Source: a virus (Duplodnaviria; Heunggongvirae; Uroviricota; Caudoviricetes). Taken from it: a stretch of DNA of 64,000 nucleotides. The translations under genes were made by a program, and so were the position numbers. How positions within the stretch are numbered: the first letter of the stretch is position 1; each line of letters opens with the position of its first letter. Of the stretch, positions 30,062 through 63,874 are shown piece after piece. The notes below the pieces were generated by a model. The model did not search any database. It was given only the letters and a program-made list of their open reading frames with translations, and had not been told where the DNA came from. Location: the IMG/VR virus record IMGVR_UViG_3300021400_000932. One strand, given 5' to 3'.

Positions 30062-30610
30062 TTATTTCATGATTTCTGTTTTAAGATTAGACACATAACA
30101 CTTGCCAAATACGAGCTCAACATCCATATCTTCTGTGTCGATGCCGGAATCATAATCAGCAAAATCTTCATCGTACTGGCTACTATGGTAAGAGGGTCCT
30201 GTTTGATATTCCCAAGTAACTACACCAGACACTCTATATACAAGTGTAATGGTACAGGTAACATGGTATTTACCTGGCTTGTATGGCATATTGTCTACAA
30301 GGATTGATAGCGCATCTTCTATGATTTCATTTGAATCTCGAATAGCTACTTCGTATCCATCAATTTCGACATACCAATCTTCATCAGAATTAGCATCTTG
30401 TATGGCCCAATCGAATTTTGTTTCTGGTGAATCATCAATAGATGCGGAAGAATCTACAACAAAAATATCGTCAATCGGAACTGTCAGCTTTATCTCTTCT
30501 TCCGGAAGTTCCTTACCTCTATCCTCGTAGTCATCCGGTTCATACCGATTGTTGCTCGGCACTTTCGTGTATCGTCCGCCTAAGATTGGAGAAAACTTTC
30601 TTTTCTTCAT
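30062..30610 (-). CDS. Acidic hypothetical protein with a basic N-terminus
   Basis: MKKRKF... followed by a D/E-rich body. Confidence 0.7.
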   Translation of the reverse strand: MKKRKFSPILGGRYTKVPSNNRYEPDDYEDRGKELPEEEIKLTVPIDDIFVVDSSASIDDSPETKFDWAIQDANSDEDWYVEIDGYEVAIRDSNEIIEDALSILVDNMPYKPGKYHVTCTITLVYRVSGVVTWEYQTGPSYHSSQYDEDFADYDSGIDTEDMDVELVFGKCYVSNLKTEIMK

Positions 30611-30996
30611 CCTCTAACCTCCTCAACAGGCATAGCAACCCATTTGAGGTATTGGTCTGATTCTTCTCCACATACCGGACAAATACCAGTAACACACTCA
30701 ACCTCTTGGTCGCTCAAAACGGTAGCAGACAGGAATATATTCTTGCATTTATCGCACTCTGCGATATAGTGACCGGAAATATTATTCTCTACCTCAATGT
30801 TGATGCTATCTTCTTGGTGGTCATCATCAGTCACCGTATCCTGAATATCTTCAACGGTATCTGCAACATCATCAAGCTGGTCAGAAAAGGAATCATCCAA
30901 ATCATCCATACCGCCGAGATTGGGGGTCATGTTCAGTTCGTCATCTTCCGCAGCAACAATCTTCTTACTTGCAGTTACCTTAAATCTTGTTTTCAT
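30607..30996 (-). CDS. Leader-bearing acidic protein with a C-terminal zinc ribbon
   Basis: MKTRFKVTASKKIVAAED; CDKC...CPVCG. Confidence 0.75.
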   Translation of the reverse strand: MKTRFKVTASKKIVAAEDDELNMTPNLGGMDDLDDSFSDQLDDVADTVEDIQDTVTDDDHQEDSINIEVENNISGHYIAECDKCKNIFLSATVLSDQEVECVTGICPVCGEESDQYLKWVAMPVEEVRG

Positions 30997-31048
30997 AACA
31001 GTAAAACCTCACAATCATAAAATAATTGGTCTTACTAATATATAAGGT

Positions 31049-31396
31049 TTATTCTTCCGGTAACTTCGGCAGTAAAGATTCGATTGTTTCTTTCATATAC
31101 GTGTGGATTTGTTCATCAACATGATTGAGTGGAGGATTGTCGGATGCACCATAAAACACCTTTGTGTAGTCATGACCGATTTGCGGAAAATCGTCAAACA
31201 TATTTGTATCGACCGTAGAACAGAGTTCATTAATAATGTCCATTACCTTGCTGAAACATCTGCGGTCTTTTTCCGTTAATATGCTTTCAGCCGCAGCATA
31301 TGTTTTTGTTGCGAGCGTTTTGAATATGCGCATCTCTGCGCCAGCTTTCATATAAACATCCATAGTTCTTTCAGATTTACTTAACTTTCTCGCCAT
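31049..31396 (-). CDS. Hypothetical protein (paralog of 31441-31803)
   Basis: YMKAGAEMRIFKTL...YTKVFYG shared pattern. Confidence 0.7.
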   Translation of the reverse strand: MARKLSKSERTMDVYMKAGAEMRIFKTLATKTYAAAESILTEKDRRCFSKVMDIINELCSTVDTNMFDDFPQIGHDYTKVFYGASDNPPLNHVDEQIHTYMKETIESLLPKLPEE

Positions 31397-31440
31397 AGTG
31401 TTCTCCTTTAGTATGAAATTGCATTATCTAGTATTGAACC

Positions 31441-31803
31441 TTATTCGTTCTGTAACAGTGATTCTGCTGTTTCTTTTATGAGTTTGCGCATATATGTATC
31501 GACTGGAGTTCCACCACAAAGATTATTGGTATTGCCCCAGAATACTTTTTCATAGTCATAAGTAGGGAAGTCTGTGTTTTCAGTGAGTTTAGAACGATTG
31601 TCAAACCAATCGGCCGCAAGTGAATTGCTAATGCTATCAAGCATGGATAGAGCCCGTCTTAGACGTTGTAGGTCAGATGCTTTTAATAAATGTCCAACAT
31701 CAACCCACATTTTACTTCCAAGGGTTGTAAGCAAACGCACTTTCGCCCCCAATTTAGTGTATTCATCTAGGGTTAGTTTTGATTTGGTTTGTTTCTTCTC
31801 CAT
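31441..31803 (-). CDS. Hypothetical protein (paralog of 31049-31396)
   Basis: YTKLGAKVRLLTTL...YEKVFWG. Confidence 0.7.
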   Translation of the reverse strand: MEKKQTKSKLTLDEYTKLGAKVRLLTTLGSKMWVDVGHLLKASDLQRLRRALSMLDSISNSLAADWFDNRSKLTENTDFPTYDYEKVFWGNTNNLCGGTPVDTYMRKLIKETAESLLQNE

Positions 31804-31823
31804 AGCTTATACCTCCCAAATTT

Positions 31824-32684
31824 TTATTGATTATAAGTTTGCGCATACTCAGTAATAGATAACTGGTCTGCGAACTGAATAAGATGAACAAGCGGATATA
31901 CAGCATTCGCCCTATTCAAATCTTTTTGGTCTTCGCCAGCCAGGTTCCAAGCACCCATATGCCAACGGATTGCTAACATAGCTTCTGCCGAAAGCTGTAT
32001 GAACTTACTTACGATAAACATAGAAGCCGTACCATTACCAAAAGGAACATTTTTGGGATTAATTCTGTAGGAAAGAACTTTCTCCCACTGACCGGTTTCT
32101 TCATTTTTAACATTTCTCTGATATGGCTCATATTTGTAAATCTTGTCCCAATCATGGGTGAGAGCCACTATTGTAGCTTCTGCGAGGTTACAACCTTTGA
32201 ACTGCGGAAGTACTCTAAGAGTAATGATTTGGTTGTAGACTTTAAGAGAATGGTACACCAATCCGCAAGGTTCGGAATCATGGAATACAGTAGATGCGGC
32301 AGTATCAAAGAAATCTGTACCCTCTAACCATTCCAGAGTTCTCTTGATTTGCGGGATGGTCTTATCGGGGTTTACTCCTTTTTGTTCTGCAAGCATCATA
32401 ACAGCACCGGCTAAAAGCATTTCATATGCATCTCTCATATATTCGGAACCGTTATTTACAGCACCACTCACAAGCCGAACAGGTTCACCAACAGAACCTT
32501 CGCATCGGCACTTCCAGCGTTCAGCGGCATTGTCTATTACCATCTGTAATGCTGGTTCGACATCTGCAACAGCAATCTCATTACCGGTCTCCTTATCAAA
32601 AACAGAATAGCCACCATTCGGATTAGTTTCAAATCTATATCCGCAGGTTTCATCATAAGTAGGAAAATTATTAAAGTTAATCAT
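31824..32684 (-). CDS. HD-domain phosphohydrolase
   Basis: HDSEPCGLVYHS...LTHDWDK...AIRWHMG...ADQLS. Confidence 0.8.
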   Translation of the reverse strand: MINFNNFPTYDETCGYRFETNPNGGYSVFDKETGNEIAVADVEPALQMVIDNAAERWKCRCEGSVGEPVRLVSGAVNNGSEYMRDAYEMLLAGAVMMLAEQKGVNPDKTIPQIKRTLEWLEGTDFFDTAASTVFHDSEPCGLVYHSLKVYNQIITLRVLPQFKGCNLAEATIVALTHDWDKIYKYEPYQRNVKNEETGQWEKVLSYRINPKNVPFGNGTASMFIVSKFIQLSAEAMLAIRWHMGAWNLAGEDQKDLNRANAVYPLVHLIQFADQLSITEYAQTYNQ

Positions 32685-32775
32685 AGTGGTGCTCCTTTAA
32701 TTTTTATTTCTACCCTATTAAACGATTCCATAATAAAAAAATACCACCGGATGTTCGTCCAGCGGTATCATATAG

Positions 32776-32985
32776 TTATTTAGCGGTTTGTAACTCTTGT
32801 CGGAGTTTCGCATAAAATGATTCTGATTGATTTGCTTGCACCATTTCTTTGCATTTTTCGGCTTTTCTGTAACAAGAATAACAACAGAAGTTGTATCTTT
32901 TCGATGCGAAACTTATATTGTATATACTACCTGGTCTTGGAATGTAGTTTTTGCCGCACATATCACAAGTCTTAGAATCGAACAT
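32776..32985 (-). CDS. Small zinc-finger protein (TRASH/MYM-like)
   Basis: CDMCGK...FCCYSC. Confidence 0.55.
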   Translation of the reverse strand: MFDSKTCDMCGKNYIPRPGSIYNISFASKRYNFCCYSCYRKAEKCKEMVQANQSESFYAKLRQELQTAK

Positions 32986-32990
32986 ACTAC

Positions 32991-33422
32991 TTACCCTCTC
33001 GGTCTAAATCCATATAAATCTTTGTGCCAATCAGAATAAGTACCTTTTGCCTCAGCATAATCCATAGCAGCTCTTAGATGTTCTGGAGATGCACCAAACT
33101 TCTCGGATGCTATTTCGACAAATTCCGGAGAGTTCATAAAGTCATAAATATAAGTGTATTTCTCTTTTGTGTCTAACGTTCTCCATAATTCATGTGCGAG
33201 GCTGTAGACAGCATAGGTGTCAATACCATAATCGGTTTTGCCTTTTATGCGGGTATTATAGAAATCCCTCAGTCGTTGTTCTTCCTCTGGCGTCGGCATA
33301 TCATCATAATAGAGAGCTTCATAGTCTGGCTCTTCTTCCTCTACAATATCATCGCCATAGAGGTCATCATAGTATTCGTTTATATAATCATCTGTTCGAT
33401 TAGCTTTGATATATCGGTACAT
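32991..33422 (-). CDS. Leader-bearing acidic hypothetical protein
   Basis: MYRYIKAN followed by a D/E/Y-rich segment. Confidence 0.75.
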   Translation of the reverse strand: MYRYIKANRTDDYINEYYDDLYGDDIVEEEEPDYEALYYDDMPTPEEEQRLRDFYNTRIKGKTDYGIDTYAVYSLAHELWRTLDTKEKYTYIYDFMNSPEFVEIASEKFGASPEHLRAAMDYAEAKGTYSDWHKDLYGFRPRG

Positions 33423-33432
33423 AGTGAGCTCC

Positions 33433-33999
33433 TTAATTTTGACAAATAATCAGTTTACCTTTTCGGGTAACATCTGGGAATATCGTCTGGATTTCCTCCA
33501 GATAGTCAGCGGTCTTTCGATTGAGCTGATATCCGGATTTGGTGGGACCCTCATTTCCCTTACCGGAACCCTCATATACTGTGATGTAAACTGTACCACC
33601 GGATTTAGTCAGTTTCTTGATGTTTTTAAGAACATTCAAACGGACGTCACGTTCTTTGATTACATTCAAAACATTGGAGCAAGTTGTAGTATCCGCACCA
33701 CCATTTTGGCGAATTTCGCGAAGTACTTCATTATTATGTTCGCTACTTCTATTGTATGGGTCGTATACAAGATTAGTAACTCCGAAATTTGCCAAATACT
33801 CAGCTACATTATCAAACTTACCGCCACCATAATCTAAGTTAATGGTGTTAGGCTGAAAGTTGACCATTCGGAAGATTGCCGGTAGCTTTCCGCTGTTGAT
33901 AGATGTATTTCTACTATCAAATTCCTGTTCCATCTCTTCAATTTCGAATGAACCATCTTCGGTTCGGCTGCTTGCTAAAACCTTAAAATGTCTTTTCAT
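33433..33999 (-). CDS. Leader-bearing class I SAM-dependent methyltransferase-like protein
   Basis: LDYGGGK motif I, YDPYN, ADTTTCSNVLNVI; resembles the MTase module of the phosphorothioation-associated methyltransferase family. Confidence 0.75.
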   Translation of the reverse strand: MKRHFKVLASSRTEDGSFEIEEMEQEFDSRNTSINSGKLPAIFRMVNFQPNTINLDYGGGKFDNVAEYLANFGVTNLVYDPYNRSSEHNNEVLREIRQNGGADTTTCSNVLNVIKERDVRLNVLKNIKKLTKSGGTVYITVYEGSGKGNEGPTKSGYQLNRKTADYLEEIQTIFPDVTRKGKLIICQN

Positions 34000-34493
34000 A
34001 TTTGCACCTCATTTATTGATTTAACATAATCTTCAAGTTCTCCGGTATAATCCAGGAGTTCTTTTCTGCTTGGAATCGTTTTGACTTCAGCAAATTTAAT
34101 AGGCCATTTTTCAATCTTCTTTATATTCAACGATTTTTGTGTGCCATTTTTAATGCACATCCGTATATCTTGCATATTGAATATGAAAGCTCGCTGGTAT
34201 GCTGCGAATAGAACAAAACACAGACCAAATACGCCCTTGATAAAAGATTTATCAGACACCTCATTCAACTGCTTGTCGGTTATCATATCGAAATCAAATC
34301 TATCTTGCCATGTCGCTTTTGACTCTATGTAATATTCATAAGGGTATTTGTAGCACTGAAAATCGCAGATATTTGAACTACCGTAAAATCCGGATAGCTG
34401 GTCTACGATTCTATCGAAAGAATATCCATCTTCTTTTCTGTCCAGCCATTCTTTTATCTTCTTTTCGGCTTTCTTGCCTACATCATCGGGCAT
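33996..34493 (-). CDS. RecU-like Holliday junction resolvase (PD-(D/E)XK)
   Basis: CDF..Y......IESKAT...FDF..I...Q pattern. Confidence 0.7.
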   Translation of the reverse strand: MPDDVGKKAEKKIKEWLDRKEDGYSFDRIVDQLSGFYGSSNICDFQCYKYPYEYYIESKATWQDRFDFDMITDKQLNEVSDKSFIKGVFGLCFVLFAAYQRAFIFNMQDIRMCIKNGTQKSLNIKKIEKWPIKFAEVKTIPSRKELLDYTGELEDYVKSINEVQI

Positions 34494-34733
34494 ATTTCAC
34501 ACCACCTATCTTTATATAAGGTTGAAACCCCATACAGCTTGTGTGGCTATGTGGGGTTTCACATTAGGAGCAAACAAATGAGAGGATGTTATACTTAGTA
34601 TCAATTCCTTTTTGGTTTTAATTTTTGTGACTTTGATGATACAGAATTGTTGTATGCATCAATTTTCCATAGAGGCCACTCAGTTTCTGCTTGTGCTTTA
34701 ATTCGGATGTAGCTTTCTGAAAATTGTTCACAA

Positions 34734-35642
34734 TTACCAGTCTTCTTCATCATCTTCTGGGTCACCATCGAAATCAGTTTCAAGATTTAATGCTTCCGCA
34801 AGAGATTCTGCAATCTGGCTTTCATGATTTTCAAGAAATTCATAACTATCTAAATCAAGACCTTCGATTTCTGCATAATAGTCATAGATGTAAATAGAAT
34901 CATATGCAATATCATCATAAGACAATAAATCTTCAAGTTCGTATTGAATGTCCGCACGCACCAGTCTACCATCAGCATATGCATCGCACAGTTCATCGGT
35001 AAATTCCAAATTATATTGATATCTTGGTTCCCAATCTTTGTACTTGCTGATATCTGTATCTCTCGAATCTGCGGAGTTTGGTGCCCAGAAAAATAGTTCA
35101 GGGTCGCTATAGAAGATTCTCGATAGAATTGCATCTGCAATATCTTCCAATTTTCCTGTGTAATCAAATTCATCAAGTTGTTCACGTGCAATTTTATCAA
35201 AATCATCATACATATCCGGAAACTGCTCGATGATATAGGCTACAGAGGGCAAGCAGGTTTCTCTGCCATAACCCTCATAGAATACATCTCCATCGTTCCA
35301 ATCTCGATATATAACCCTCATTATGGCTCGAACCAATTCACCTGCTACAGAATCACACATTCCCTCACTAGGAACAAGGAAATCATATGTTGCTTCAAGT
35401 ATGTCATCTATACTGCCTGTCATCTCACTGAGCTCAGTAATTTTCGATTCCGGATACTTTTCTTTCAGTTTATCTATCGCAGCTTGCTGTTCTGCACGCT
35501 TTGCCTCGGCTTCTTTTCTTTCTTTTTCTTCTCTGCGCTTGTTGCCATAATAATTTTTCAGTAAATTAGCATCACCATCTGGTGCATAAAGCATATCATT
35601 TGGGAGAGTAGCGTCAAAATCAGATTTTATATATCTATGCAT
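34734..35642 (-). CDS. Leader-bearing acidic hypothetical protein (302 aa)
   Basis: MHRYIKSD; LVPSEG...VAGELVRA..R..YR.WNDGD conserved-looking core. Confidence 0.75.
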   Translation of the reverse strand: MHRYIKSDFDATLPNDMLYAPDGDANLLKNYYGNKRREEKERKEAEAKRAEQQAAIDKLKEKYPESKITELSEMTGSIDDILEATYDFLVPSEGMCDSVAGELVRAIMRVIYRDWNDGDVFYEGYGRETCLPSVAYIIEQFPDMYDDFDKIAREQLDEFDYTGKLEDIADAILSRIFYSDPELFFWAPNSADSRDTDISKYKDWEPRYQYNLEFTDELCDAYADGRLVRADIQYELEDLLSYDDIAYDSIYIYDYYAEIEGLDLDSYEFLENHESQIAESLAEALNLETDFDGDPEDDEEDW

Positions 35643-35660
35643 TGGTAAACCTCCACTGTA

Positions 35661-36410
35661 TTAATCTTCATCAATATAGTTCGGATTTGTCCATTCTACA
35701 GACACGTCATCAAAGTCATAATCTTCATCATACACATAAACATTACCATCATCGGAAATTTCGTATGTACACCAGATTTTTTCAGATTCAACTTGATATC
35801 CATTATTTTCTTTCGCAAAACTGATTGCAGAATCTAATTCACCAGTATAGAAATCATCAGAAATTATATTTCCATCTATATCGACAACAGAATATCGTTC
35901 TTCATAATTATCACCAAGAGCATACTTATCAAGAACATCTATTGCATCTTCATTTGTGATATACATAACGATTTCATTAAAATAGAAATCATTATAGCCA
36001 GCCTCTTTCAAGTTATCGCCATTACAAGAGATGTCCCCATTAAATGTCGAATGTGTCCAACCACCACCGATAGAAGTGTCAAATTCCAAATTGCTGAGAA
36101 CTCTCCGGATATCGCCTTCTGTGATTTCAGAAATATCTTCTATGTCATCATCATAAGGGATTAAAGACATTTCCGTAATCTTAATCGGTGTAAGTCCATA
36201 TAGTGTTCCACCATAATAATAAGATTCACTAACTATATCTTCAACAGAACAATCAATATCACATTTAATTGGAATTACCTGATATGTCTGTGAATAACCA
36301 TTTCCAAAATCATCAGTAGTAGTAAATGGTTCTTCTACTTCAAAGCTATTTATCTTTATAGAGTCATAGTCAATGGTTCCTTTTATATTATATCCTGCAC
36401 CTGCACCCAT
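35661..36410 (-). CDS. Highly acidic hypothetical protein
   Basis: 249 aa, D/E-rich. Confidence 0.75.
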   Translation of the reverse strand: MGAGAGYNIKGTIDYDSIKINSFEVEEPFTTTDDFGNGYSQTYQVIPIKCDIDCSVEDIVSESYYYGGTLYGLTPIKITEMSLIPYDDDIEDISEITEGDIRRVLSNLEFDTSIGGGWTHSTFNGDISCNGDNLKEAGYNDFYFNEIVMYITNEDAIDVLDKYALGDNYEERYSVVDIDGNIISDDFYTGELDSAISFAKENNGYQVESEKIWCTYEISDDGNVYVYDEDYDFDDVSVEWTNPNYIDED

Positions 36411-36431
36411 AAGTTTTTACCTCAACTTTCT

Positions 36432-36941
36432 TTATTGTAATCCATACTGATTGAGCTGTTCCTGCCAAGTTCTGTCTGTACCTTTGGCAGTTTCTTGTAA
36501 TTTACTTAGCCACAGCTTAGACCAGTCATAGGATTCTTGAACATCGAATCCCTTGTAATCATCTTTAACCCAGAGCCACTTGTGGTGGAAGATATTATTA
36601 GAGCGTCCGGACCGCACTACCTCACCAGTCTTGGGAGATACTTCTAAATATCTTCCGACATGTGGTTCCCTTGCGGTATCGAAATCGGGACACTCATCGA
36701 ATCTCACATTCCCATTGTTGAATGTGTATCTTATGCAATTATATGAATTGAATAAGTCTGGGTCTACTTCTTTGCAAATCTCTTGTGCTCTTTTCCATCT
36801 ATCCGGCGACATTACATCGGTTGCATAATCTTTATGCAAGTATACATGTCCACCTATAGCTTTACCCACTTTTCCGAACATCCGCATCACTTCGCTGCCT
36901 TTGTTCGTTCTGAGTGGACTTCTTGCTATCACACGTTTCAT
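36432..36941 (-). CDS. Leader-bearing protein resembling the C-terminal module of the phosphorothioation-associated methyltransferase family
   Basis: GK..GG.VYLH...IRY...PDFDT..EP...IFHHK..V..DY...GT...WQEQL. Confidence 0.65.
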   Translation of the reverse strand: MKRVIARSPLRTNKGSEVMRMFGKVGKAIGGHVYLHKDYATDVMSPDRWKRAQEICKEVDPDLFNSYNCIRYTFNNGNVRFDECPDFDTAREPHVGRYLEVSPKTGEVVRSGRSNNIFHHKWLWVKDDYKGFDVQESYDWSKLWLSKLQETAKGTDRTWQEQLNQYGLQ

Positions 36942-36944
36942 AGG

Positions 36945-37559
36945 TTAGTCATCCCACCAATTATCTTCTTCAAGACCGAGATGGTTCATATCATAAATGA
37001 CTTCAGCTTCCAATCTTTCGGCAAGGTCTCTTAGTTCCGGATACATCAAAACATTGTCAGCGGTATCTTCTACGCAGATATGCCTTCCGCTTCTGCCTAA
37101 GAGATAAAGGTCCAGTCCGGTTTCTTCTTCAAATTCTGCCGCTTTAGAAGAAACAAGCTGATAGTATATTTCATCAATTTCCTTATCAGTATATGTGTCG
37201 GTATCCGGAATATTGATTTGATTTAATGTGTGATTATCATGTAACTGAAGATAGGAACGATTGTCCTCTCCATAGTATTCACATTCATCTACAACATTAG
37301 ATAAATCATCAACGATTTGTTGATACTCAGACTTTGAACAGTAAGCATCGTATTCCTCAACAACATCTTCGTATGTTGGAAAATCATCTTCTTCTCGATA
37401 CCACTTATAAATGAAGTCAGGCAATGTATCGTCAATCAAATCAGAACTTCCGGATATAATATCCCCGCTCGGTTTTATGGTATCATACATATCAGGCATA
37501 GCCGGAATACCGGATGTGTTTGTAGCACTGTCAACATCAGACAATGTAATTCTTTTCAT
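36945..37559 (-). CDS. Leader-bearing acidic hypothetical protein
   Basis: MKRITLS...; LYLLGRSGRHICV motif. Confidence 0.7.
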   Translation of the reverse strand: MKRITLSDVDSATNTSGIPAMPDMYDTIKPSGDIISGSSDLIDDTLPDFIYKWYREEDDFPTYEDVVEEYDAYCSKSEYQQIVDDLSNVVDECEYYGEDNRSYLQLHDNHTLNQINIPDTDTYTDKEIDEIYYQLVSSKAAEFEEETGLDLYLLGRSGRHICVEDTADNVLMYPELRDLAERLEAEVIYDMNHLGLEEDNWWDD

Positions 37560-37561
37560 TG

Positions 37562-37783
37562 TTACTCACCAGAACCAGATACTAACTTAGCAATCTTTCG
37601 GATAATACCGCCGATGCCGTTGTTTAATTCATCGGCAATAGAAAGAGCATCCTCAGTCTTACCATCCGCACCAAGTTTCTCGATGCCGGACACGCAGTAG
37701 TCAAAATCATCTTTCAGAACCGACAGTGCATCATCTAATCTTGTGTCTTTATCTTCCGTAGCAGCAGATATAATTCTTTTCAT
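37562..37783 (-). CDS. Leader-bearing small helical protein
   Basis: MKRIISAATE. Confidence 0.7.
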   Translation of the reverse strand: MKRIISAATEDKDTRLDDALSVLKDDFDYCVSGIEKLGADGKTEDALSIADELNNGIGGIIRKIAKLVSGSGE

Positions 37784-37787
37784 AGTT

Positions 37788-38129
37788 TTAATCTCCTAAC
37801 TTATTTGTATCAAAGTATTTATCAGCATTCATTATGACATAAGTATGGGTGCTGTAGTAGGAATCATCATCGCTTTCGCCAATTTCAGTTTCACCAGATT
37901 CTTTCAAATCCTCAGAGAAATACTTATACATCAAATAATCAGCCTGAAGGTGGTCATGTTTCCAGTCACCGTCTACCTCAACAGAAATCCCCACAGTATT
38001 ATCATCTTTGTCATAATCGCTATATACAGATTCAACCCAAACTTTATTATCAGAAAGATACTTGCTAATCTTTTCATCAAATTCGGCTTGAGTTGGTAAT
38101 GTTGAGCTTGCAGATATAATTCTTTTCAT
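37788..38129 (-). CDS. Leader-bearing acidic hypothetical protein
   Basis: MKRIISASST; VDGDWKHDHL motif. Confidence 0.75.
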   Translation of the reverse strand: MKRIISASSTLPTQAEFDEKISKYLSDNKVWVESVYSDYDKDDNTVGISVEVDGDWKHDHLQADYLMYKYFSEDLKESGETEIGESDDDSYYSTHTYVIMNADKYFDTNKLGD

Positions 38130-38185
38130 TGTATATCACCTCAGTTTACTACATTAAACGAGTTTGTCCGTAATTATTATAGGTT

Positions 38186-38219
38186 AAAAATAAAAGCCGA
38201 TGCATAATCGCACCGGCTT
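38186..38219 (-). terminator. Terminator after the DUF932 gene
   Basis: AAGCCGGTGC...GCATCGGCTT followed by TTATTTTT. Confidence 0.7.
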
Positions 38220-38234
38220 GTTAAGTTTATTGAT

Positions 38235-39241: not shown

Positions 39242-39300
39242 ATTATAGCAAATCTACAGCAAATGTCAATAGTTATTGCCATTAGAATCGCTATTGTAAT
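39242..39300 (-). promoter_or_regulatory. Strong host-type promoter with an upstream near-palindrome
   Basis: TTGACA (39264-39269), 16-nt spacer, TG-n-TATAAT (39242-39247); near-palindrome at 39281-39300. Confidence 0.75.
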
Positions 39301-55031: not shown

Positions 55032-55076
55032 AGTTTTTCTCCTTCCTTTTAGATTTAGGACATTTCCTATGTGTCT

Positions 55077-55105: not shown

Positions 55106-55134
55106 TAGTTTCAGTAAAAATCAGCATTCATGCA

Positions 55135-55410
55135 TCATTTCCACCGTCCTTCATAGATTTCTTCCGAATCACAGGAATCTCTGTAATAGATATTCTTTCT
55201 CTGCCAACCATTGTGTTGCATTGTCACCAGAACAATGTGGTCGGGAAAGATAGAAAGCTGTGAGGTTTCGCCTTGTTCATTCTCTCCGAACATCATCTCT
55301 TCGGATTCACCATACTGAGCCATAAGGTTAAGCATACCTACGCGGTCAGACGGGTCAAAATAGAGTTTGTCTTTGATTGTTATTTCCATGTTTTCTGTCA
55401 TAGATATCAT
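55135..55410 (-). CDS. Hypothetical protein
   Basis: 91 aa ORF with AAGG RBS. Confidence 0.65.
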   Translation of the reverse strand: MISMTENMEITIKDKLYFDPSDRVGMLNLMAQYGESEEMMFGENEQGETSQLSIFPDHIVLVTMQHNGWQRKNIYYRDSCDSEEIYEGRWK

Positions 55411-55419
55411 CCTTTCATA

Positions 55420-55555
55420 TGGCCAATGCGGGTGAGGATTTGCACCTCACATGTGCCTTAGTATCCTCCAAAAAATCCCGTACATAACGTCTCGGTTTTA
55501 ATTGCAGTCTGTTACCCACAGCAACGCTTGCGTCTACCTATTCCGCCACCGCATT
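55420..55555 (-). ncRNA. tRNA-like RNA (136 nt) with an expanded anticodon loop and variable arm
   Basis: Acceptor AATGCGG/CCGCATT, class II-type D arm TGGCGGAATAGGTAGACGC, anticodon-position stem AGCGT/ACGTT closing 33 nt, variable stem ATGT/ACAT, T arm GTGAGG-TGCAAAT-CCTCAC, 3' GGCCA. Confidence 0.75.
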
Positions 55556-55568
55556 ATTTGTGACTCAG

Positions 55569-55922
55569 CTATCGTACTGCGTTCATATCTTCCTCGGCAT
55601 CCGCATCTGAAACATATCTTGCTTCTACTGCACCACAAAGACATCTTCCGGACTTCTTTTGCCATTCGAAAATATATTTAAGTAAGTTGTCGCAGCACCA
55701 AGAACTTTCATTGTATAAAGACTCAATCTGGTCTTTGTCCCACGAAGTAGGAACAAGAACGGGGAGCCTGATTGTGAAATCTACCATCACCGACTTTTGA
55801 GGGATTACACAATCTGATTTATGCCTACCACCTATCGGTTCTCCGCAGTAAAAGCATGTACCATCCGGTCTTGCTGGTCGTTCATCATCAGGTTTTACAA
55901 CCCAAGTGTCTTTTCTTTCCAT
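55569..55922 (-). CDS. Zinc-binding hypothetical protein
   Basis: RPARPDGTCFYCGEPIG..H..DCV; WCCDN. Confidence 0.7.
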   Translation of the reverse strand: MERKDTWVVKPDDERPARPDGTCFYCGEPIGGRHKSDCVIPQKSVMVDFTIRLPVLVPTSWDKDQIESLYNESSWCCDNLLKYIFEWQKKSGRCLCGAVEARYVSDADAEEDMNAVR

Positions 55923-55945
55923 AGTGGAATTCCTCTTTCCGTAAA

Positions 55946-56119: not shown

Positions 56120-56120
56120 A

Positions 56121-56519: not shown

Positions 56520-56549
56520 ATCGCACCTCCAGCATAAAGGCGAGTTGGT

Positions 56550-56933: not shown

Positions 56934-56973
56934 AAAAATTCTCCTTTCTGTTCCTTTGTTCGGAACCTAGATG

Positions 56974-57282: not shown

Positions 57283-57298
57283 TTAGTACACCACCCAT

Positions 57299-57616: not shown

Positions 57617-57638
57617 CTTGTGTACCTCCGTATATTTA

Positions 57639-57716
57639 ATATAACGATTACATTATCATTATATCACAATATTAGAAAATTGCAATAGTAATAGACATTA
57701 CAATAGCTATTGTAAT
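57639..57716 (-). promoter_or_regulatory. Host-type promoter with a perfect 20-bp palindrome and a downstream phage motif
   Basis: ATTACAATAGCTATTGTAAT (57697-57716); TTGCAA, 16 nt, TG-n-TATAAT; AATCGTTATAT (57639-57649). Confidence 0.75.
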
Positions 57717-57737
57717 AGTTTTGTAACCTTTTTTGAC

Positions 57738-57770
57738 AAAAATAAAGAGGTTGGTGTGAAACCAACCTCT
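57738..57770 (-). terminator. Rho-independent terminator
   Basis: AGAGGTTGGT/ACCAACCTCT stem followed by TTATTTTT. Confidence 0.8.
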
Positions 57771-57784
57771 CAAATTGAACTTGA

Positions 57785-58054
57785 TTACTGATATTCTTCT
57801 TGATGGTCTTCCCAGAATGCTTCTACATCATCCCAACCGAGCCAGCCAGCATATGTATCATCTTCGAACCAGAAGAAGTCATTCAGCTCAGTTTCATCAA
57901 TGCCATCGGGATATTCCTCAGCGAGAATACCGATAATGGTATTGAGTTCGTCATCCGACAAGCATTTTACTCTGTCTAATGCTCCAGACCAAACCATATC
58001 GCGAATGCCATTGGCATCTAAGTCATTAGATGTGGTAACTGTGATATATGCCAT
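57785..58054 (-). CDS. Small acidic phage protein
   Basis: WSGA.D...LAEEYPDGIDETELNDFFWFE motif; C-ending codon bias. Confidence 0.75.
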   Translation of the reverse strand: MAYITVTTSNDLDANGIRDMVWSGALDRVKCLSDDELNTIIGILAEEYPDGIDETELNDFFWFEDDTYAGWLGWDDVEAFWEDHQEEYQ

Positions 58055-58058
58055 AGTT

Positions 58059-58283
58059 TTACTCCTTTACTTCACTAATAAAATCAGGGTCTTCATCCAT
58101 AACCTCGAATGAGTCCGGCAGGTAATCACCCTCTGGTAATTCAAACTCATCTATGTGATTTTGGGCATACTCTAAAGCCGCCTCAGCCGATTCCGCAGGA
58201 ACAATAATATCTCCAGTTTCTACCCAAGAAACAGTAACTGCCCATTTTTTGGTATTTTTCGATGCTTGAACTATCCGTTTCAT
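58059..58283 (-). CDS. Leader-bearing small acidic protein
   Basis: MKRIVQASK. Confidence 0.75.
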   Translation of the reverse strand: MKRIVQASKNTKKWAVTVSWVETGDIIVPAESAEAALEYAQNHIDEFELPEGDYLPDSFEVMDEDPDFISEVKE

Positions 58284-58678
58284 ACCGATTCCCCTTTATT
58301 TGATTTATACAGTTGTTCGTATAATCTCGCCGCCTTCGCTCTAGGCATTTCCCAAGAACCGCCTGGTTGCGAAATAAGAATAGATTTCTTTCCTTTTTGA
58401 ACTTGGAATGTTGTATCTCCAATGGTATATTTAACTTTATCAGGAGAACCGCCATCATTCAGATAATCTTGTGCGGCTTCGAAATCATCTTGGTAAATTC
58501 GTCTTGGTACACCATTATCTATGACGAATTCCGCAACTCTGTGAGAAATCTGTCCTTCTATATTATAGAAAACATAAAGGAAGTTCTTAATCTGTTCTCT
58601 GTCGATTTCAGATGCAGCAACCGGAAGCCTATCTTCATAGATAGTAGATGCTTTTATTACTATTTTCATATTCGACAC
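58280..58678 (-). CDS. Leader-bearing hypothetical protein
   Basis: MKIVIKAST...PVAASE. Confidence 0.7.
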   Translation of the reverse strand: MSNMKIVIKASTIYEDRLPVAASEIDREQIKNFLYVFYNIEGQISHRVAEFVIDNGVPRRIYQDDFEAAQDYLNDGGSPDKVKYTIGDTTFQVQKGKKSILISQPGGSWEMPRAKAARLYEQLYKSNKGESV

Positions 58679-58684
58679 CCCAGA

Positions 58685-59347
58685 TTAGTTTGTTCTGTAG
58701 ATGTAGTAGTCATCCCAATCAATTTCAATACCATCATATCCGGCAAGCATAGGACCTCTACCATCTAATTCTTTGGTTTCTTCGATGACCGCATCCCAAT
58801 CTACGAGATTATTGCGTTCGACTACCTCATTGAGTTCATCTTCACCAAACTCAAATTTGAATTCTTCCACATAGTCATCAATAGAATCGACAAGATATTC
58901 TGAAAGTTTGGTTACAAGGTCATCTGTTGATAGTAAACAAGCCTTGTAGTTCACATCGCCATTTTCATCTACTTCAAAATCATCGTCATCAATGAGTTCT
59001 GCATCATAGCATTCCTGAACAAGTCTTGTGCCATATGTGTCATCATATTCCTCATAGATGTCATAAGCATAGTTTTCTTCCATCTCTCTGTAAGCATCTT
59101 CAAACCAATCTGCATCAGCAAATTCAGTAAGAATTCTACTCTGGAAACTTGGGGTAAAACCTTGAATGCCTAAATCATCAATGAGATTCATTTCGGAATT
59201 ATAAAATTCCTCGTCAGCCTCATCTTCTGTCAGCACAAGATACTCTCTGCCATCAGCTACTTCATAGAGGTTTTCATTATAATCAGATTGAGTTATTTCA
59301 GATTCATCTACACCAAGCAATTCAGCTAAAGCCTCAATTTTTTCCAT
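58685..59347 (-). CDS. Very acidic phage protein
   Basis: EYLVLTEDEADE...VDWDAVIEE...DGRG..LAGYDG.E motif. Confidence 0.75.
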   Translation of the reverse strand: MEKIEALAELLGVDESEITQSDYNENLYEVADGREYLVLTEDEADEEFYNSEMNLIDDLGIQGFTPSFQSRILTEFADADWFEDAYREMEENYAYDIYEEYDDTYGTRLVQECYDAELIDDDDFEVDENGDVNYKACLLSTDDLVTKLSEYLVDSIDDYVEEFKFEFGEDELNEVVERNNLVDWDAVIEETKELDGRGPMLAGYDGIEIDWDDYYIYRTN

Positions 59348-59393
59348 GGCTATTATCTCCTTATTTATTATATATTATTTAACGATTTGAAAA

Positions 59394-60005
59394 TCAGAAA
59401 TGAGCAATAGTAGCGGATGCTGTATTACCAACAAGCAGCTCGCCGGTATTTCTGTCCTCTACAAGTATTCCAGTCTTGTGACCATTGGTATCATTCCACG
59501 AGAAACCAATAACATCATAACTATCTACTCGGTCTAAATCGCCACCGATATATATAGCATCTCCATTATCAACCATCTGTTTCAGTTCTTTTCGAGTAAA
59601 CAGATAACCACGTGGAAATCTTCTTGTCTGCTTACCATATTTTCTACCGCTTGGTGACTTCCAAGCCGATGCGGTAATTGAAGTAGCAGAATTTATATTG
59701 TTACAAGCCAAAAGACTTCTATCAAATGGAGATTCTGCAAAATCGGAGTTAGGTAGTCCATCTTCTCCAATATCAAAATATTCATCATATGTAAATCCTT
59801 GCGATTCACCGGTAATCATATTAGTAATCAGAACGCTGCCGTTACCATTACAAATAAATGAATGTGCATAATCAATAGCTTCTTCTAAATCATCTACACA
59901 AGCATATTCTGAAAGACCTCGGAAACTATCTTCGAAGAACGATTCAACTAGATAGTTATACTCTGAGTCATTGATAGAAGCAAAAACCTTAAATTTTCTT
60001 TTCAT
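59394..60005 (-). CDS. Leader-bearing two-part hypothetical protein
   Basis: MKRKFKVFAS; internal INSATSITASA linker. Confidence 0.75.
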   Translation of the reverse strand: MKRKFKVFASINDSEYNYLVESFFEDSFRGLSEYACVDDLEEAIDYAHSFICNGNGSVLITNMITGESQGFTYDEYFDIGEDGLPNSDFAESPFDRSLLACNNINSATSITASAWKSPSGRKYGKQTRRFPRGYLFTRKELKQMVDNGDAIYIGGDLDRVDSYDVIGFSWNDTNGHKTGILVEDRNTGELLVGNTASATIAHF

Positions 60006-60011
60006 TGTGTA

Positions 60012-60497
60012 TCACCATTTAAACTTAGTATATACTATGCGGTTTCCATCTGTCCACACATAAGATTTATTCATTCTCTCAAAAATTGCTTTTCCAAATC
60101 GACCTAAATCAATGTAGCTAAATGGATTTATTGGTCTTTGGTCCATACCTGCATCATAGTGAGCACAAATATTTTGAAGATGGGAGAAGTATCCATTGTA
60201 TATATCATATTTTGCGAAATCCTCAAAACTATAATACACAAACAATTCTTTATTTTGCCATTCACCTTCTCCAACCGACTGCAAAAGGCTTTCAGATAAT
60301 TCTGGATATTTGGGTTTCATTTCTTCGAAATTATCGAACTCATCACGAAATTCCCAACAAAAAATAGGATTATCCAATCCTTTGTAGTTGGCTTCGAGTT
60401 CTTTTAACTTTTCGGTATCATTAAAAACTATGGCCTCAAGTTGTTGTAACTCTTTAGCATCATACAAATATTTTATATCCATATAATTTAACCCCAC
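60012..60497 (-). CDS. ArdA-like acidic protein (paralog of 60513-60860)
   Basis: FEDFAKY...NPFSYIDLGRFGKAI resembles the ArdA C-terminal YIDYEAYGRDL motif. Confidence 0.5.
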   Translation of the reverse strand: MGLNYMDIKYLYDAKELQQLEAIVFNDTEKLKELEANYKGLDNPIFCWEFRDEFDNFEEMKPKYPELSESLLQSVGEGEWQNKELFVYYSFEDFAKYDIYNGYFSHLQNICAHYDAGMDQRPINPFSYIDLGRFGKAIFERMNKSYVWTDGNRIVYTKFKW

Positions 60498-60512
60498 CTA
60501 CATTATTGTGCA

Positions 60513-60860
60513 TCACCAGCCATAAGATGTTTCTACAACATTTGTACCGTCTGTCCAATACATCGAAGCATCCCATGATTCGGAAAGAGCCTCGCCAAGT
60601 GCTTGCATATCAATGAAGTCAAACAAATTTGGTGCGCCATTCCAGTCAGGTTCTCCATATGTACCGAGTACTGAAGTATACCAACCTTCACATACTTCAT
60701 ACTCAGCCAAACCAGTTAAACCATCATAATATACATACAACTCGTCATCTTGCCACTCACCCTCACCAATATCAGACAAAAGGTCAGCAGCCAATTCAGG
60801 ATATTCATTTGATAGTTCTTCGAAATTATCAAAAGTTGCATAATAATCGCCTTTTATCAT
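60513..60860 (-). CDS. ArdA-like acidic protein
   Basis: LAEYEV.EGW...NLFDFIDMQALGEAL. Confidence 0.5.
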   Translation of the reverse strand: MIKGDYYATFDNFEELSNEYPELAADLLSDIGEGEWQDDELYVYYDGLTGLAEYEVCEGWYTSVLGTYGEPDWNGAPNLFDFIDMQALGEALSESWDASMYWTDGTNVVETSYGW

Positions 60861-60873
60861 AGCTCAACCCTCC

Positions 60874-61251
60874 CTATGGTGCAATAGCATATACGGTAAC
60901 CGTGGCAGTATATACATACATATCATCAGAACCGTAGAAATAGTCCGGTTCACCTTTTTCTACAATAGCATCGAAACCGTAATCAGAACCATCGGTCAGT
61001 TCGTGCATATACTCATCAATTCCTATCAATAGGAATTTTTCTAACTGCCAGTAGTTTTCCGGATACTCAATAGCGATTGTGTATTCTACTTCATTTTCAT
61101 CGACGACTTTATCGTCAACTACTGTGCATTTAGCATATTCGCCATTGCCCCAGATTTCAAACTCTTTGTCCGGAAATTCAAAATCGAATCTTTCATCCAG
61201 TGCTATCGCAGCAGTAACTGTTTTAGGGGATACCTTAAATGTTTTCTTCAT
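60874..61251 (-). CDS. Leader-bearing acidic protein
   Basis: MKKTFKVSPKTVTAAI. Confidence 0.7.
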   Translation of the reverse strand: MKKTFKVSPKTVTAAIALDERFDFEFPDKEFEIWGNGEYAKCTVVDDKVVDENEVEYTIAIEYPENYWQLEKFLLIGIDEYMHELTDGSDYGFDAIVEKGEPDYFYGSDDMYVYTATVTVYAIAP

Positions 61252-61265
61252 ATTATCACCAAGCC

Positions 61266-62000
61266 TTATTCTTCAAATGAAACATTTGCATAGTCCGCAT
61301 AATCTCGCAGCCAATCGACGTCAAAGTCTGTCCAACCATCGGGATTTGCTTTATAATCTTCAATAAGTTCTTCCACCGTACCGGAATGCTCTCCCGATGG
61401 AGAAGAATCAAGATAAAGCACATCAAAATCAGGATTTTCCGACAATCGTTCTACCAGAGTTTCGCTATTTTCCTCATAGATACCGTTGTCGAAATGATAG
61501 GTTATAATCTGACATACTGCTTTCCACTTATCTCTGTCAGATTCAAAAGCCTCTATGAACTCTTGTTTGTCGCTTGGGAAGAAAGAAATAAATCCGGAAC
61601 GAGAAGAATACTTCTCATGTAAGAAGTTCAAGAAATCATTATCATCTTTGTATTCTTCAAACTCTTCGGTTACCCAACCATCGTCCACAGAAATAGAAAA
61701 ATTGAGTTCATCCCCAGAGAAATTATAGTATGATGGATGATACATACTACCGGAACCAGATACAACCTTAGCCGGAATACCAAGTTCGTTGAAACTGTCT
61801 TGAATTATATCCATAGACTCTGTAACAACCTGATTCCAGAAAGCATCCAAATCTTTATCCAAGACTACCATCTCAGAGTTATAGAAAAATGAACTAAGTG
61901 ACCCACCATAGGCATCTACATCAATTATCGGAATGACATTGGTAGATACGTCATATGTTGTCCAATCGCCATTATCGGCAGCAAAAACAAATCTTTTCAT
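61266..62000 (-). CDS. Leader-bearing acidic protein
   Basis: MKRFVFAAD; HPSYYNFSGD...YSSRSGFISF motif. Confidence 0.75.
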   Translation of the reverse strand: MKRFVFAADNGDWTTYDVSTNVIPIIDVDAYGGSLSSFFYNSEMVVLDKDLDAFWNQVVTESMDIIQDSFNELGIPAKVVSGSGSMYHPSYYNFSGDELNFSISVDDGWVTEEFEEYKDDNDFLNFLHEKYSSRSGFISFFPSDKQEFIEAFESDRDKWKAVCQIITYHFDNGIYEENSETLVERLSENPDFDVLYLDSSPSGEHSGTVEELIEDYKANPDGWTDFDVDWLRDYADYANVSFEE

Positions 62001-62004
62001 AATA

Positions 62005-62319
62005 TCAATCCTCTATCCAATCTCGCACGAATTCAGAAACAACTTTAATTAAGCCGTCTTTATTTTCTTCAACTAAATCATATTTTTCCCAATCATCTTT
62101 TTCTCTTGCGTCTTCTTCTAATTCTTCTAACATACCATCAACAAACAATTCACCATATGGTGTAGTATCATCTTTATATTCATACCAATCTTCGGAACAA
62201 TCTGAATCTGCGGTAAAAACTAATACACCATCTATGTAGATATTAAATTCATAATACCCTGCACGCATTTCTATTTTTGGATGATTGCCTGCTGTATTTG
62301 CACGGATAATTCTTTTCAT
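62005..62319 (-). CDS. Leader-bearing acidic protein
   Basis: Probable start MKRIIRAN. Confidence 0.7.
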   Translation of the reverse strand: MKRIIRANTAGNHPKIEMRAGYYEFNIYIDGVLVFTADSDCSEDWYEYKDDTTPYGELFVDGMLEELEEDAREKDDWEKYDLVEENKDGLIKVVSEFVRDWIED

Positions 62320-62452
62320 AATTTTATGTCCTCTCATGTTTTAAAATAAATCTTTTGGATTTGGGACAAGTTCATCTATATGATTATTCTGTTCCAACAT
62401 ATCTATTAAAAGTTCTTTCATATCTTCTGTTGAAGCTATATCGAAGTCGTAA

Positions 62453-62695
62453 TCACACCTCAAAAAACTCATCGACATAATCACCATTTAGAAAATGACG
62501 TCTATTGTTGTTGTCGCTAACCAATAATCCACCATTTTCCAAATAATCGAGAATAACATACTTTTCTCCGACTGTAAAATATTCTTTATCTGCATCAGAA
62601 TCGTGCTTTACACAAGTGACATACTTAGGAGAATAGTCATAATCAGAGCAAGAAACCGATTTAGATGCTTTAATTCCCTTAATTACTCTTTTCAT
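62453..62695 (-). CDS. Leader-bearing small protein
   Basis: MKRVIKGIKASKSVSCS; FTVGEKY.I. Confidence 0.7.
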   Translation of the reverse strand: MKRVIKGIKASKSVSCSDYDYSPKYVTCVKHDSDADKEYFTVGEKYVILDYLENGGLLVSDNNNRRHFLNGDYVDEFFEV

Positions 62696-62708
62696 AGCAA
62701 ATCACCTA

Positions 62709-63074
62709 TCAATAGAAGTCATATTCGCCATTTGCGATTCCCTCAACATCTTCAAAATAATAATCTCTGAGTCGTTCGGCTATCGCAACTCTCGTATTCT
62801 TGGGAAGAAGTGTCAGGCTACCCTTGCCAGAACCGAACTCTCTATCATATGCCCGAACGCCATCATCGGCAAGATACTGCCAAGCCTTGATAGCCTGTTC
62901 ATTATCATACCTACCAGCTTTCATCTTTCTTGCTAAATTATTAATTATCGGAATTGTCCGACTGCGATACAGACGTCCATCATTGGTAATGTATAAAACG
63001 AGTTCTTCTACATCCTCTGCGGAAGTTATATCTCTGTCGATTAAATAATTGGAAGATTTTATATATCTTTTCAC
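62709..63074 (-). CDS. Leader-bearing conserved-looking phage protein
   Basis: GTG start, KRYIKSS; ELVLYITNDGRLY...NLARK...YD...A.KAW.Y...Y..EFG. Confidence 0.8.
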   Translation of the reverse strand: MKRYIKSSNYLIDRDITSAEDVEELVLYITNDGRLYRSRTIPIINNLARKMKAGRYDNEQAIKAWQYLADDGVRAYDREFGSGKGSLTLLPKNTRVAIAERLRDYYFEDVEGIANGEYDFY

Positions 63075-63193
63075 AACAACTCACCCTTATCTGCTTTTTG
63101 TGTCCTAATACTATTAAAGGTTTGAATTGAACCTCTCGGAACAGTTCAAACCTTTAATTTATTATTTATCCACACTCCATAGCAATTCACCTA

Positions 63194-63874
63194 TCAGTTA
63201 TACTCGTGAGGAACAAACTCCCCACTCTCAATTTGGCGAATAAGTTCATTGTATTCATCCAAAAGCCATGCCGCCGTGTTCGGGTAACTCTCTTCGGGCG
63301 AGATACCCATATCAGTATCCCAAACCTCACCAGTTTCCTCATCATACGGCATATCGCAGAAATCATAATCAGCCCACACAGCTTCATGTGTAGTAGCAAT
63401 TTTAGCGCAGATTACATAGCTTGGTTCATTTTCATCATGAATTACAGACTCGAAGTCATCAGTATATCCGGCATTGGACCAACCGACATAAACAGCCCAA
63501 TCATTGTCCAGCTTATACTGATTGTTGGTGGCAGTTCCTGCAAGCAGATTATCTACACTTTCCTTAATAAACTTCGCAAGGTCGGAAGCAGACTGTGTAG
63601 ATGCCGTAATGTCGCAACTTTCAATATCAGTAGAAGCATCTTCAAACTGACGATAGAATTCCCTGATATGTCTATTGGTAGTCTGACTTGCCTTGTATTC
63701 TTCCTCCGGAACTCTCTTGCCATTACGGACAGTAGCTACCGGAGTATCATAGCTGTAAAGAACATAATCTCCGTTGTCTTTCACAACTACTTTTGCTTTA
63801 CCATAAAAGCTCTTTCGGGAATCATACTGCGGAGAAAGCTCAAAAATTCTTTCTGCTTTAATGTATCTTTTCAT
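63194..63874 (-). CDS. Leader-bearing two-domain protein
   Basis: Probable start MKRYIKAE; SFYGKA...LYSYDT.V...SQTT.RHI.EF domain, then a DITAS linker and an acidic domain. Confidence 0.75.
   Translation of the reverse strand: MKRYIKAERIFELSPQYDSRKSFYGKAKVVVKDNGDYVLYSYDTPVATVRNGKRVPEEEYKASQTTNRHIREFYRQFEDASTDIESCDITASTQSASDLAKFIKESVDNLLAGTATNNQYKLDNDWAVYVGWSNAGYTDDFESVIHDENEPSYVICAKIATTHEAVWADYDFCDMPYDEETGEVWDTDMGISPEESYPNTAAWLLDEYNELIRQIESGEFVPHEYN

Follow-up and report, generated by a model that had tools for sequence, protein, structure and literature searches.

A short N-terminal leader on unrelated phage proteins as a probable capsid-targeting and cleavage tag with Ala or Ser at P1

This analysis suggests that a basic N-terminal leader, 7-10 residues of which are shared by otherwise unrelated phage proteins, is probably a capsid-targeting and cleavage tag in the style of bacteriophage T4, with Ala or Ser, not Glu, at P1 (the position just before the predicted cut). 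The leader occurs within 64,000 nt, read as one strand, of the Caudoviricetes record IMGVR_UViG_3300021400_000932 (termed here the window), where almost every gene is on the minus strand. The tag reading is considered the most likely one because the leader motif also marks predicted cut sites in the capsid and scaffold proteins that the phage itself encodes.

According to the mechanism proposed here, the shared N-terminus would be a short propeptide. It would label proteins for uptake into the prohead during assembly and would then be removed by the phage's own T4 gp21-type head-maturation protease, with a predicted cut after (I/V)-x-(A/S), preceded by basic residues and followed by S/A/N/D/E at P1'. 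This code would also trim an N-terminal propeptide of about 80-100 residues from the major capsid protein, free the protease domain from its fused scaffold, chop the scaffold, and split the domains of multi-domain cargo. The outcome would be a large, fast-turnover and mostly acidic set of proteins in the head, which could enter the host together with the DNA. The enrichment of the motif, its recurrence at conserved head-protein sites, its modularity and its covariation with lineage are properties of the sequences themselves; from them we infer the gp21-type enzyme as the cutter, the exact scissile bond, and the packaging, ejection and function of the cargo.

An IMG/VR contig that is 98% identical to the window and extends past its end (L001/L020/L021) was used for the head module, and a complete 155,391-bp relative with terminal repeats (termed here G001), whose proteins are about 50% identical to those of the window phage, was used for comparison. 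Past the window's end the contig carries about nine further leader genes and, farther upstream on the same strand, baseplate genes and the head module. At least 30 tagged genes are seen within about 125 kb of the window phage's genome. A megablast search of the window against cultured phages found no match.

The leader and its recurrence in head proteins

The first-pass annotation had described about 17 unrelated, mostly acidic proteins with a common basic leader, and this description holds: all 17 N-termini were located, each on the minus strand and with a plausible Shine-Dalgarno site, and an all-versus-all BLASTP search among the 17 bodies found no mutual similarity. (The same search did recover the window's true paralog families, namely the presumably YopX-like genes described below, the targets of a diversity-generating retroelement (DGR) and a Cys-rich trio.) The leader proteins are also more acidic than the products of other genes (median isoelectric point (pI) 4.35 versus 5.2; P = 0.001). 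Eight of the genes lie in 30607-38129, flanked by an SNF2 helicase/DUF932 unit and a UvrD helicase, and nine in 58059-63874. Twelve belong to a short class, M-K-R-(I/V/Y/F)-(I/V)-x-(A/S)-(S/A/N/D/E), and five to a long class, MK(R)xFKV...(V/I)xA(S/A).

The pattern [KR]x[IV]xA[SANE] was observed 11 times within the first 11 residues, compared with 0.27 expected from the interior rate (P ~1e-14), and seven times exactly at residue 3, compared with 0.024 expected; these P values, and the roughly 40-fold enrichment at N-termini, refer to a pattern chosen after inspection of the data, so that the P values are indicative only. As had been proposed, selection appears to act on the peptide: Arg within the leaders is encoded by AGA, CGA, CGT and CGG, and 41% of identical leader residues differ in codon, which argues for conservation at the peptide level.

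The codon evidence bears on an explanation unrelated to head assembly, namely that the N-terminus reflects a translation-initiation or mRNA bias (A-rich second codons, and MK or MKR starts in low-GC phages) or else a stability or degron signal. Consistent with such a bias, MKR is the start tripeptide found most often, in the window as in G001; MKRIII likewise begins a membrane protein (12738-13190), and the leader cluster at 58-64 kb lies behind a promoter motif that replication genes share. Conservation nevertheless reaches residues 7-8 (Ala-Ser, with GC-rich codons) while the codons vary, the word recurs at conserved internal sites of the capsid protein, the scaffold and cargo linkers, and (L/I/V)xE takes its place in another lineage; hence this explanation is judged improbable.

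Support for a capsid-targeting and cleavage tag comes from the head module, which encodes a 531-aa fusion of a Peptidase_S77 protease with a coiled-coil scaffold and, besides it, a Gp23-family capsid protein of 478 aa (PF07068, 3.8e-13). G001 carries the same module, and no HK97-type protease or capsid family was found in that complete genome. An AlphaFold2 model of the protease domain matches T4 gp21 (5jbl; probability 1.0, template-modelling (TM) score 0.61, 27% identity) and no other fold, the pseudorabies virus (PrV) protease being a weak match at rank 49 (TM score 0.38). His59 and Ser114 are invariant in nine protease homologs, with just one invariant His in the 165-residue domain (L021:8347-8841). 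Searches of PDB sequences with the protease and capsid proteins, using phmmer and hmmsearch, found no T4 chain. Sequence and modelled structure together identify the predicted product as a gp21-type (assemblin-fold) prohead protease encoded by the phage.

Both the scaffold and the capsid protein, to which the first-pass annotation had pointed as places to look for the motif, contain it at conserved positions, and across the head module it takes the form basic-x-(I/V)-x-(A/S)↓(S/A/N/D/E), where the arrow marks the predicted cut. Among the capsid proteins of ten relatives, the first 80-100 residues are variable except for three to five tandem (I/V)-x-(A/G)-(S/A/N/G) words in conserved places; these words mostly have Arg or Lys just before them, and the last adjoins the conserved core, which starts TNTSNI. 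In most relatives the extreme N-terminus of the capsid protein, MAIKKTTRRVTPSSITAS, resembles the long leader class and, in particular, the leader MKKTFKVSPKTVTAA of the gene at 60874-61251. Within the protease-scaffold protein (alignment A1), (I/V)-A-A-S is invariant immediately after the protease domain, the scaffold part has conserved R-I-x-A-(S/A) and K-(I/V)-x-A-A words, and V-T-A-S-T lies about 45 residues before the C-terminus. Leaders of a MAxKAx(V/I)T(S/A)A-like form are found at the very start of six of the nine proteases, and in several relatives leader genes are sited within the head module.

A small protein encoded after the capsid gene (L021:12676-13110, 144 aa; counterpart at G001:71788-72156) has an extremely acidic core and Arg/Lys/Pro-rich tails. 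Motif words (AIRAAE, PVRASS, PVSAST) occur near either end, and the protein is a candidate precursor of a head-core or internal peptide.

The same head-protein sites could be read more narrowly: the motif might be a protease cleavage site only, not a targeting signal, with the cargo being processed, activated or destroyed, or reaching the prohead in some other way, and with the leader perhaps keeping the cargo inactive until late infection. Internal sites in the capsid and scaffold proteins do require cleavage rather than targeting, and some cargo resembles polyproteins cut between domains. The conserved part of the leader (M-K-R-aromatic/aliphatic), however, reaches beyond P3-P1', and the placement of leader genes inside the head modules of several relatives likewise speaks for targeting. 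Moreover, the T4 prohead protease is active only within proheads, so that its substrates must be inside first. These considerations make a role in cleavage alone unlikely. For T4 internal proteins, a role of the capsid-targeting sequence (CTS) in packaging is on record (PMC3012670).

A second question is which enzyme would cut. The A-S with which leaders end resembles the FF↓AS junction of ribosomal protein L27, and the long class includes F-K-V-F-A-S, so that a host protease such as the cysteine protease Prp might be considered. In Firmicutes this enzyme trims L27 ahead of Ala-Ser, and the capsid and scaffold proteins of staphylococcal phage 80alpha are processed by it as well; the Prp motif is (K/N)LxLQ(F/L)F↓A(S), with Phe at P1. 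Prp/L27-type processing was rejected on this motif, the corresponding P1 and P2 residues of the leaders being K/S/Q/R/T and I/V, with Phe-Phe missing from nearly all of them. Furthermore, the phage has a gp21-type protease of its own, and the leader motif stands exactly after that protease's domain as well as in its scaffold. Cutting by a host enzyme is therefore regarded as highly improbable.

Exchange of leaders, linkers and cleavage codes

The capsid-targeting and cleavage reading is also supported by the modular behavior of the leader. The words that had been reported at internal linkers (IVAAE, PVAAS, ITAS and DITAS) are all present in the window. The C-terminal domain of the protein at 63194-63874 also stands alone in metagenomes, as 141-aa proteins starting MKRYIKAA-TNSVSDLAKF, and in fusions with other modules it is always preceded by QTVTAS, CDIMAS or QDITAS; thus, before one and the same domain, the standalone leader and the fusion linker align residue for residue. 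Leaders can also be exchanged between classes: the methyltransferase that starts MKRHFKVLAS in the window has the short-class leader MNKVIRAN in its G001 ortholog (68% identity), and the family of the 73-aa protein at 37562-37783 shows five different leaders, every one ending (I/V)x(A/S)(A/S).

The position of the predicted cut follows from a comparison of homologs. Among 84 homologs of the 302-aa cargo protein (34734-35642), 55 have Ala/Ser-type starts (YIKS↓D, RVTA↓D, I-x-A-A↓D and similar) and 17 have LxE-type starts (...L-T-E↓A). Because Y-I-K-A-E-R, Y-I-K-S-A-R and S-V-K-E-S-R precede the same body, with Ala or Ser occupying the position of Glu in the T4 code, the cut is predicted as (I/V)-x-(A/S)↓x. 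Neither the window leaders nor the head-protein sites conform to an (L/I)-x-E code cut after Glu.

The two codes sort by lineage. Another lineage (L032/L033) shares DUF8033 and the acidic domain with the window phage, in an island behind a T4-type portal, where 21 of 39 genes have Glu-type MI(R/K)VxE-like leaders and none has an Ala-type leader; the window has 17 matches to the Ala-type pattern (two of them spurious) and five background Glu-type matches (Fisher P = 8e-8). The homolog of the protein at 61266-62000 in this Glu-type lineage (L033) begins MKFE-VNTNVIP. In the search for a capsid gene of the Glu-type lineage, one related contig was followed as far as its T4-type portal. The window-type code is absent from the cultured distant relatives Bacillus phage HSE3 and Streptococcus phage GXN1, whose capsid protein is 25-27% identical.

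The T4-like targeting leader and cleavage code put forward in the first-pass annotation is thus well supported in silico, by the protease, the Gp23-type capsid protein, the motif sites in head proteins, the interchange of leaders and linkers, and the replacement by (L/I/V)xE. Besides the post hoc choice of the pattern, several points weigh against it. Two of the 17 leaders, MKRVIARS (36941) and MKRITLSD (37559), are a poor fit to the motif, which is itself short and which also matches the interior of non-head proteins. The protease assignment scores close to the Pfam threshold (PF03420, S77: 27.2 bits against a cut-off of 27, and 27.5 in G001), and the model of the protease domain is of moderate confidence (predicted local distance difference test (pLDDT) 67). 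All characterised gp21-type proteases, those of T4, phiKZ, 201phi2-1 and SPN3US, cut after Glu (PMC5694885); Ala or Ser at P1 would have no phage precedent, and therefore another enzyme could in principle cut. The cargo is acidic (median pI 4.35), whereas T4 internal proteins are basic, and room in the head would have to be divided among dozens of cargo species. No AACC motif of the kind described below precedes the 58-64 kb cluster, which instead lies downstream of AATCGTTATAT-type motifs found ahead of replication genes as well, so that the promoter argument is limited to one cluster. Finally, the lineage is uncultured and known from its sequences alone.

Cargo, transcription units and neighboring genes

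Only one of the 17 bodies, the methyltransferase at 33433-33999, has a Pfam domain, and the other 16 have no recognisable function. When 27 leader proteins were compared with Pfam and PHROGs, the matches comprised this methyltransferase, DUF8033 (in a precomputed table only) and a few function-less PHROGs. The 302-aa cargo protein was modelled by AlphaFold2 with a pLDDT of 90, its residues 1-10 having a mean of 51 and no secondary structure, in favor of a flexible leader; the model has no fold match at E <= 0.001 in the PDB or BFVD, and its best match among AlphaFold Database clusters (E 1.7e-3) is an uncharacterised protein that aligns with the central helical domain only. A search of the ESM Atlas gave no usable lead. 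Homologs of just four of the 17 cargo proteins exist in G001, which indicates fast turnover of the islands, like that of T-even internal-protein loci (PMC3012670).

The further proposal that the cargo is a library of anti-defence or host-takeover proteins found no support in any of these results: the cargo matched no known anti-defence family, and an anti-defence role is speculation. The Glu-type cargo island directly after the T4-type portal does contain an ArdA anti-restriction gene (L033:5669-6457), and L032 includes a Tad5-family gene. The ArdA gene of this sister island lacks a leader and therefore lends no support to an anti-restriction role of the tagged cargo.

All leader genes of the window are encoded on the minus strand. 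In the first block, the gene at 30607-30996 encodes an acidic 129-aa protein with the long-class leader MKTRFKVTAS and a tandem second site, IVAAE; its G001 ortholog (57% identity) has retained the second site alone, as RIVAAE. Next come a short-class gene (32991-33422; MYRYIKAN, 143 aa), without a Pfam or PHROG match, and the long-class gene 33433-33999 (MKRHFKVLAS, 188 aa), whose body is the S-adenosylmethionine methyltransferase (PF13489, 1.7e-6). The 302-aa protein at 34734-35642 (MHRYIKSD) represents a conserved cargo family with a G001 member in the head module. The two weak leaders are MKRVIARS (36432-36941, 169 aa; phrog_16075, 4e-29), which fits the motif only as V-I-A↓R, and MKRITLSD (36945-37559), on a very acidic 204-aa protein. 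They are followed by MKRIISAA (37562-37783, 73 aa), with homologs in G001, L022, L023 and L026, and by MKRIISAS (37788-38129, 113 aa), the first gene of the operon.

The second block opens with MKRIVQAS (58059-58283, 74 aa) and MKIVIKAS (58280-58669, 129 aa, with the second site PVAAS). Two long-class genes lie at 59394-60005 (MKRKFKVFAS, with an internal SITAS word at 59667-59678) and at 60874-61251 (the 125-aa protein whose leader resembles the capsid N-terminus), and MKRFVFAA starts a 244-aa protein at 61266-62000. Farther on are MKRIIRAN (62005-62319, 104 aa), MKRVIKGIKAS (62453-62695, 80 aa) and MKRYIKSS (62709-63074, 121 aa), the last with a GTG start and a second word, DITSAE. The block ends with MKRYIKAE (63194-63874), a protein composed of DUF8033, an internal site CDITAS (63599-63610) and the C-terminal acidic domain. 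(MKIVIKAS starts at 58669; the starts of MKRIIRAN at 62319 and MKRYIKAE at 63874 are internal ATGs of slightly longer open reading frames.)

Several leader operons had been said to follow an AACC promoter variant that also precedes tail genes, a claim that stands for the 30.6-38.1 kb cluster and fails for the 58-64 kb cluster. In the former, the units 38129-32776 and 30996-30062 have terminator-like hairpins around them and an AACCTT..TATA motif in front. The AACC(T)..TATA promoter-like motif at 38172-38185 lies 56 nt upstream of the 38129 operon, a second AACC-type motif within that operon (34510-34523) lies 30 nt upstream of 34493, and another (31036-31049) lies 53 nt upstream of the leader gene at 30996. 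One hairpin (38194-38219) separates the leader operon from the DUF932 gene, which instead has a perfect sigma70-type promoter; others close the 38129-32776 operon (32740-32769) and the 63.9-57.8 kb leader cluster (57745-57771). All of these motifs and hairpins are on the minus strand.

In three relatives the strand-specific motif AACC(T/C)T..TATA is also found ahead of the protease-scaffold gene, at a distance of 52-59 nt. It recurs within this gene in four relatives and the window phage, where the capsid gene follows after 425-500 nt; in G001 it occupies the matching place in the scaffold gene, at a distance that a gene-calling artefact makes unmeasurable. This scaffold-internal, promoter-like motif, AACCTTATATATA, which is conserved across five lineages (L021:9550, L022:9502, L024:9546, L028:9579 and G001:68411), may be an embedded promoter that boosts transcription of the capsid gene. 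AACC..TATA motifs are found upstream of baseplate, head and tail/DGR genes as well, and this sharing of a motif counts in favor of the tag reading as a sign of co-expression. A second recurrent upstream motif, AATCGTT(A/T)ATAT, occurs on the minus strand of the window at 59387, 57640, 32700, 30014 and 25170 and at about 14360 of L021. It stands ahead of the units for helicase and ligase, as well as of part of the leader cluster at 58-64 kb. Consensus sigma70 promoters occur at 39269 and near 57685, 55110 and 44400. Judged by these motifs, the pattern suggests three promoter classes.

Other genes of the window were noted in passing. Two TnpB/OrfB_IS605 genes (43236-44351 and 53781-55031, minus strand) each follow a sigma70-like promoter, and the second encodes a Cas12f-like TNB domain. 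Between 46361 and 50480 (minus strand) are six paralogous genes of 119-150 aa, with other small genes between them, that start M(R/S/T)E(I/L)LFRGK and are presumably YopX-like. A 167-nt spacer at 55410-55569 (minus strand) has tRNA-like ends, namely a D-arm-like GGAATAGGTAGAC and a T-arm-like GAGGTGCAAATCCTCAC; neither ARAGORN nor Rfam gives a call for it, and it could be a disrupted tRNA, a tRNA with an insertion or a tRNA-like RNA. The gene at 22732-24693 (minus strand) encodes a complete NAD-dependent DNA ligase, which comprises adenylation, OB and BRCT domains, and the lineage also has a ligase-like protein between terminase and portal (G001 153025-154590).

Comparison with known systems

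Relative to T4-type tags, the novelty would lie in the use of Ala/Ser in the code, in a layout like that of herpesviruses, in the scale and in cargo of polyprotein type. A broader account, advanced tentatively and with a little less than even confidence, is that in phages of about 155-200 kb from rumen and related metagenomes, with T4-type heads, a gp21-fold protease has switched from the Glu code to the assemblin code (V/I)-x-Ala↓Ser, within a herpes-like layout, and that a 7-residue address label loads dozens of hypervariable, mostly acidic proteins and polyproteins for delivery to the host. If this were true, a 7-residue peptide would reveal from sequence alone all the proteins that an uncultured phage lineage packages or injects, and dozens of fast-evolving proteins of unknown fold would become prime candidates for host takeover or counter-defence in the first minute of infection. 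Among phage gp21-type proteases, the enzyme would be the first that is specific for Ala↓Ser; this would bring capsid maturation in phages and herpesviruses closer together and provide a natural experiment on a protease specificity co-evolving with hundreds of sites. So short a tag could also enable the packaging of proteins in engineered phages that infect Gram-positive bacteria of the gut or rumen, a use to which the T4 CTS is already put in E. coli.

The closest functional parallel is the CTS of T4 (on IPI, IPII, IPIII and Alt, and removed by gp21), which is likewise a short N-terminal tag on unrelated, hypervariable proteins; it is 10-20 residues long and ends in the motif that gp21 also uses on the capsid and scaffold proteins (PMC3012670, PMC5694885). 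T4 and the window phage also agree in their kind of head machinery, which includes a Gp23-type capsid protein and a gp21-type protease. The window phage differs in its predicted P1 (Ala/Ser versus Glu), in a tag that is shorter (7-10 residues) and basic, in having at least 30 tagged genes rather than a handful, in its acidic cargo, in the fusion of protease to scaffold and in that some cargo is multi-domain and polyprotein-like.

In the giant phages phiKZ, 201phi2-1 and SPN3US, many head-internal proteins have N-terminal propeptides that a gp21-like protease removes (PMC5694885, PMC10052503). These phages share with the window phage multiple tandem sites per propeptide and self-cleavage of the protease (predicted for the window phage); they differ in using (S/A/G)-x-E or A-x-E motifs, with cutting after Glu, and in propeptides that often exceed 100 residues and have no shared short leader. 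The Dar proteins of phage P1 (DarA, DarB, Hdf and others), which include a methyltransferase-containing protein, are packaged in the head and delivered with the DNA against restriction (PMC9024508, PMC12810830). A methyltransferase among the cargo is a point in common with the window phage, whereas incorporation of Dar proteins depends on ordered protein-protein dependencies, not on a common short leader, and no homology was found between Dar proteins and the window cargo.

With regard to code and layout, the nearest counterpart is the herpesvirus assemblin (pUL26 family). Its code, (V/L/I)-x-A↓S, resembles the predicted sites of the window phage, where the bond is deduced from alignment; the R-site of human cytomegalovirus, for example, is YVKA↓S, close to the leader YIKA↓S. 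In both systems an N-terminal protease is fused to a scaffold, and the window phage has candidate sites after the protease domain and near the scaffold C-terminus, the two places where PrV assemblin has its sites YLQA↓T and VQA↓S, respectively (PMC4498786). Assemblin-type maturation involves a Ser-His-His catalytic triad and activation that depends on dimers, whereas a single invariant His was seen in the protease domain of the window lineage. Herpesviruses are not known to tag a cargo library in this way. The folds of gp21 and assemblin are shared (PMC5694885). By analogy, then, the window phage would combine a T4-type head with a processing code and a protease-scaffold arrangement that resemble those of assemblin.

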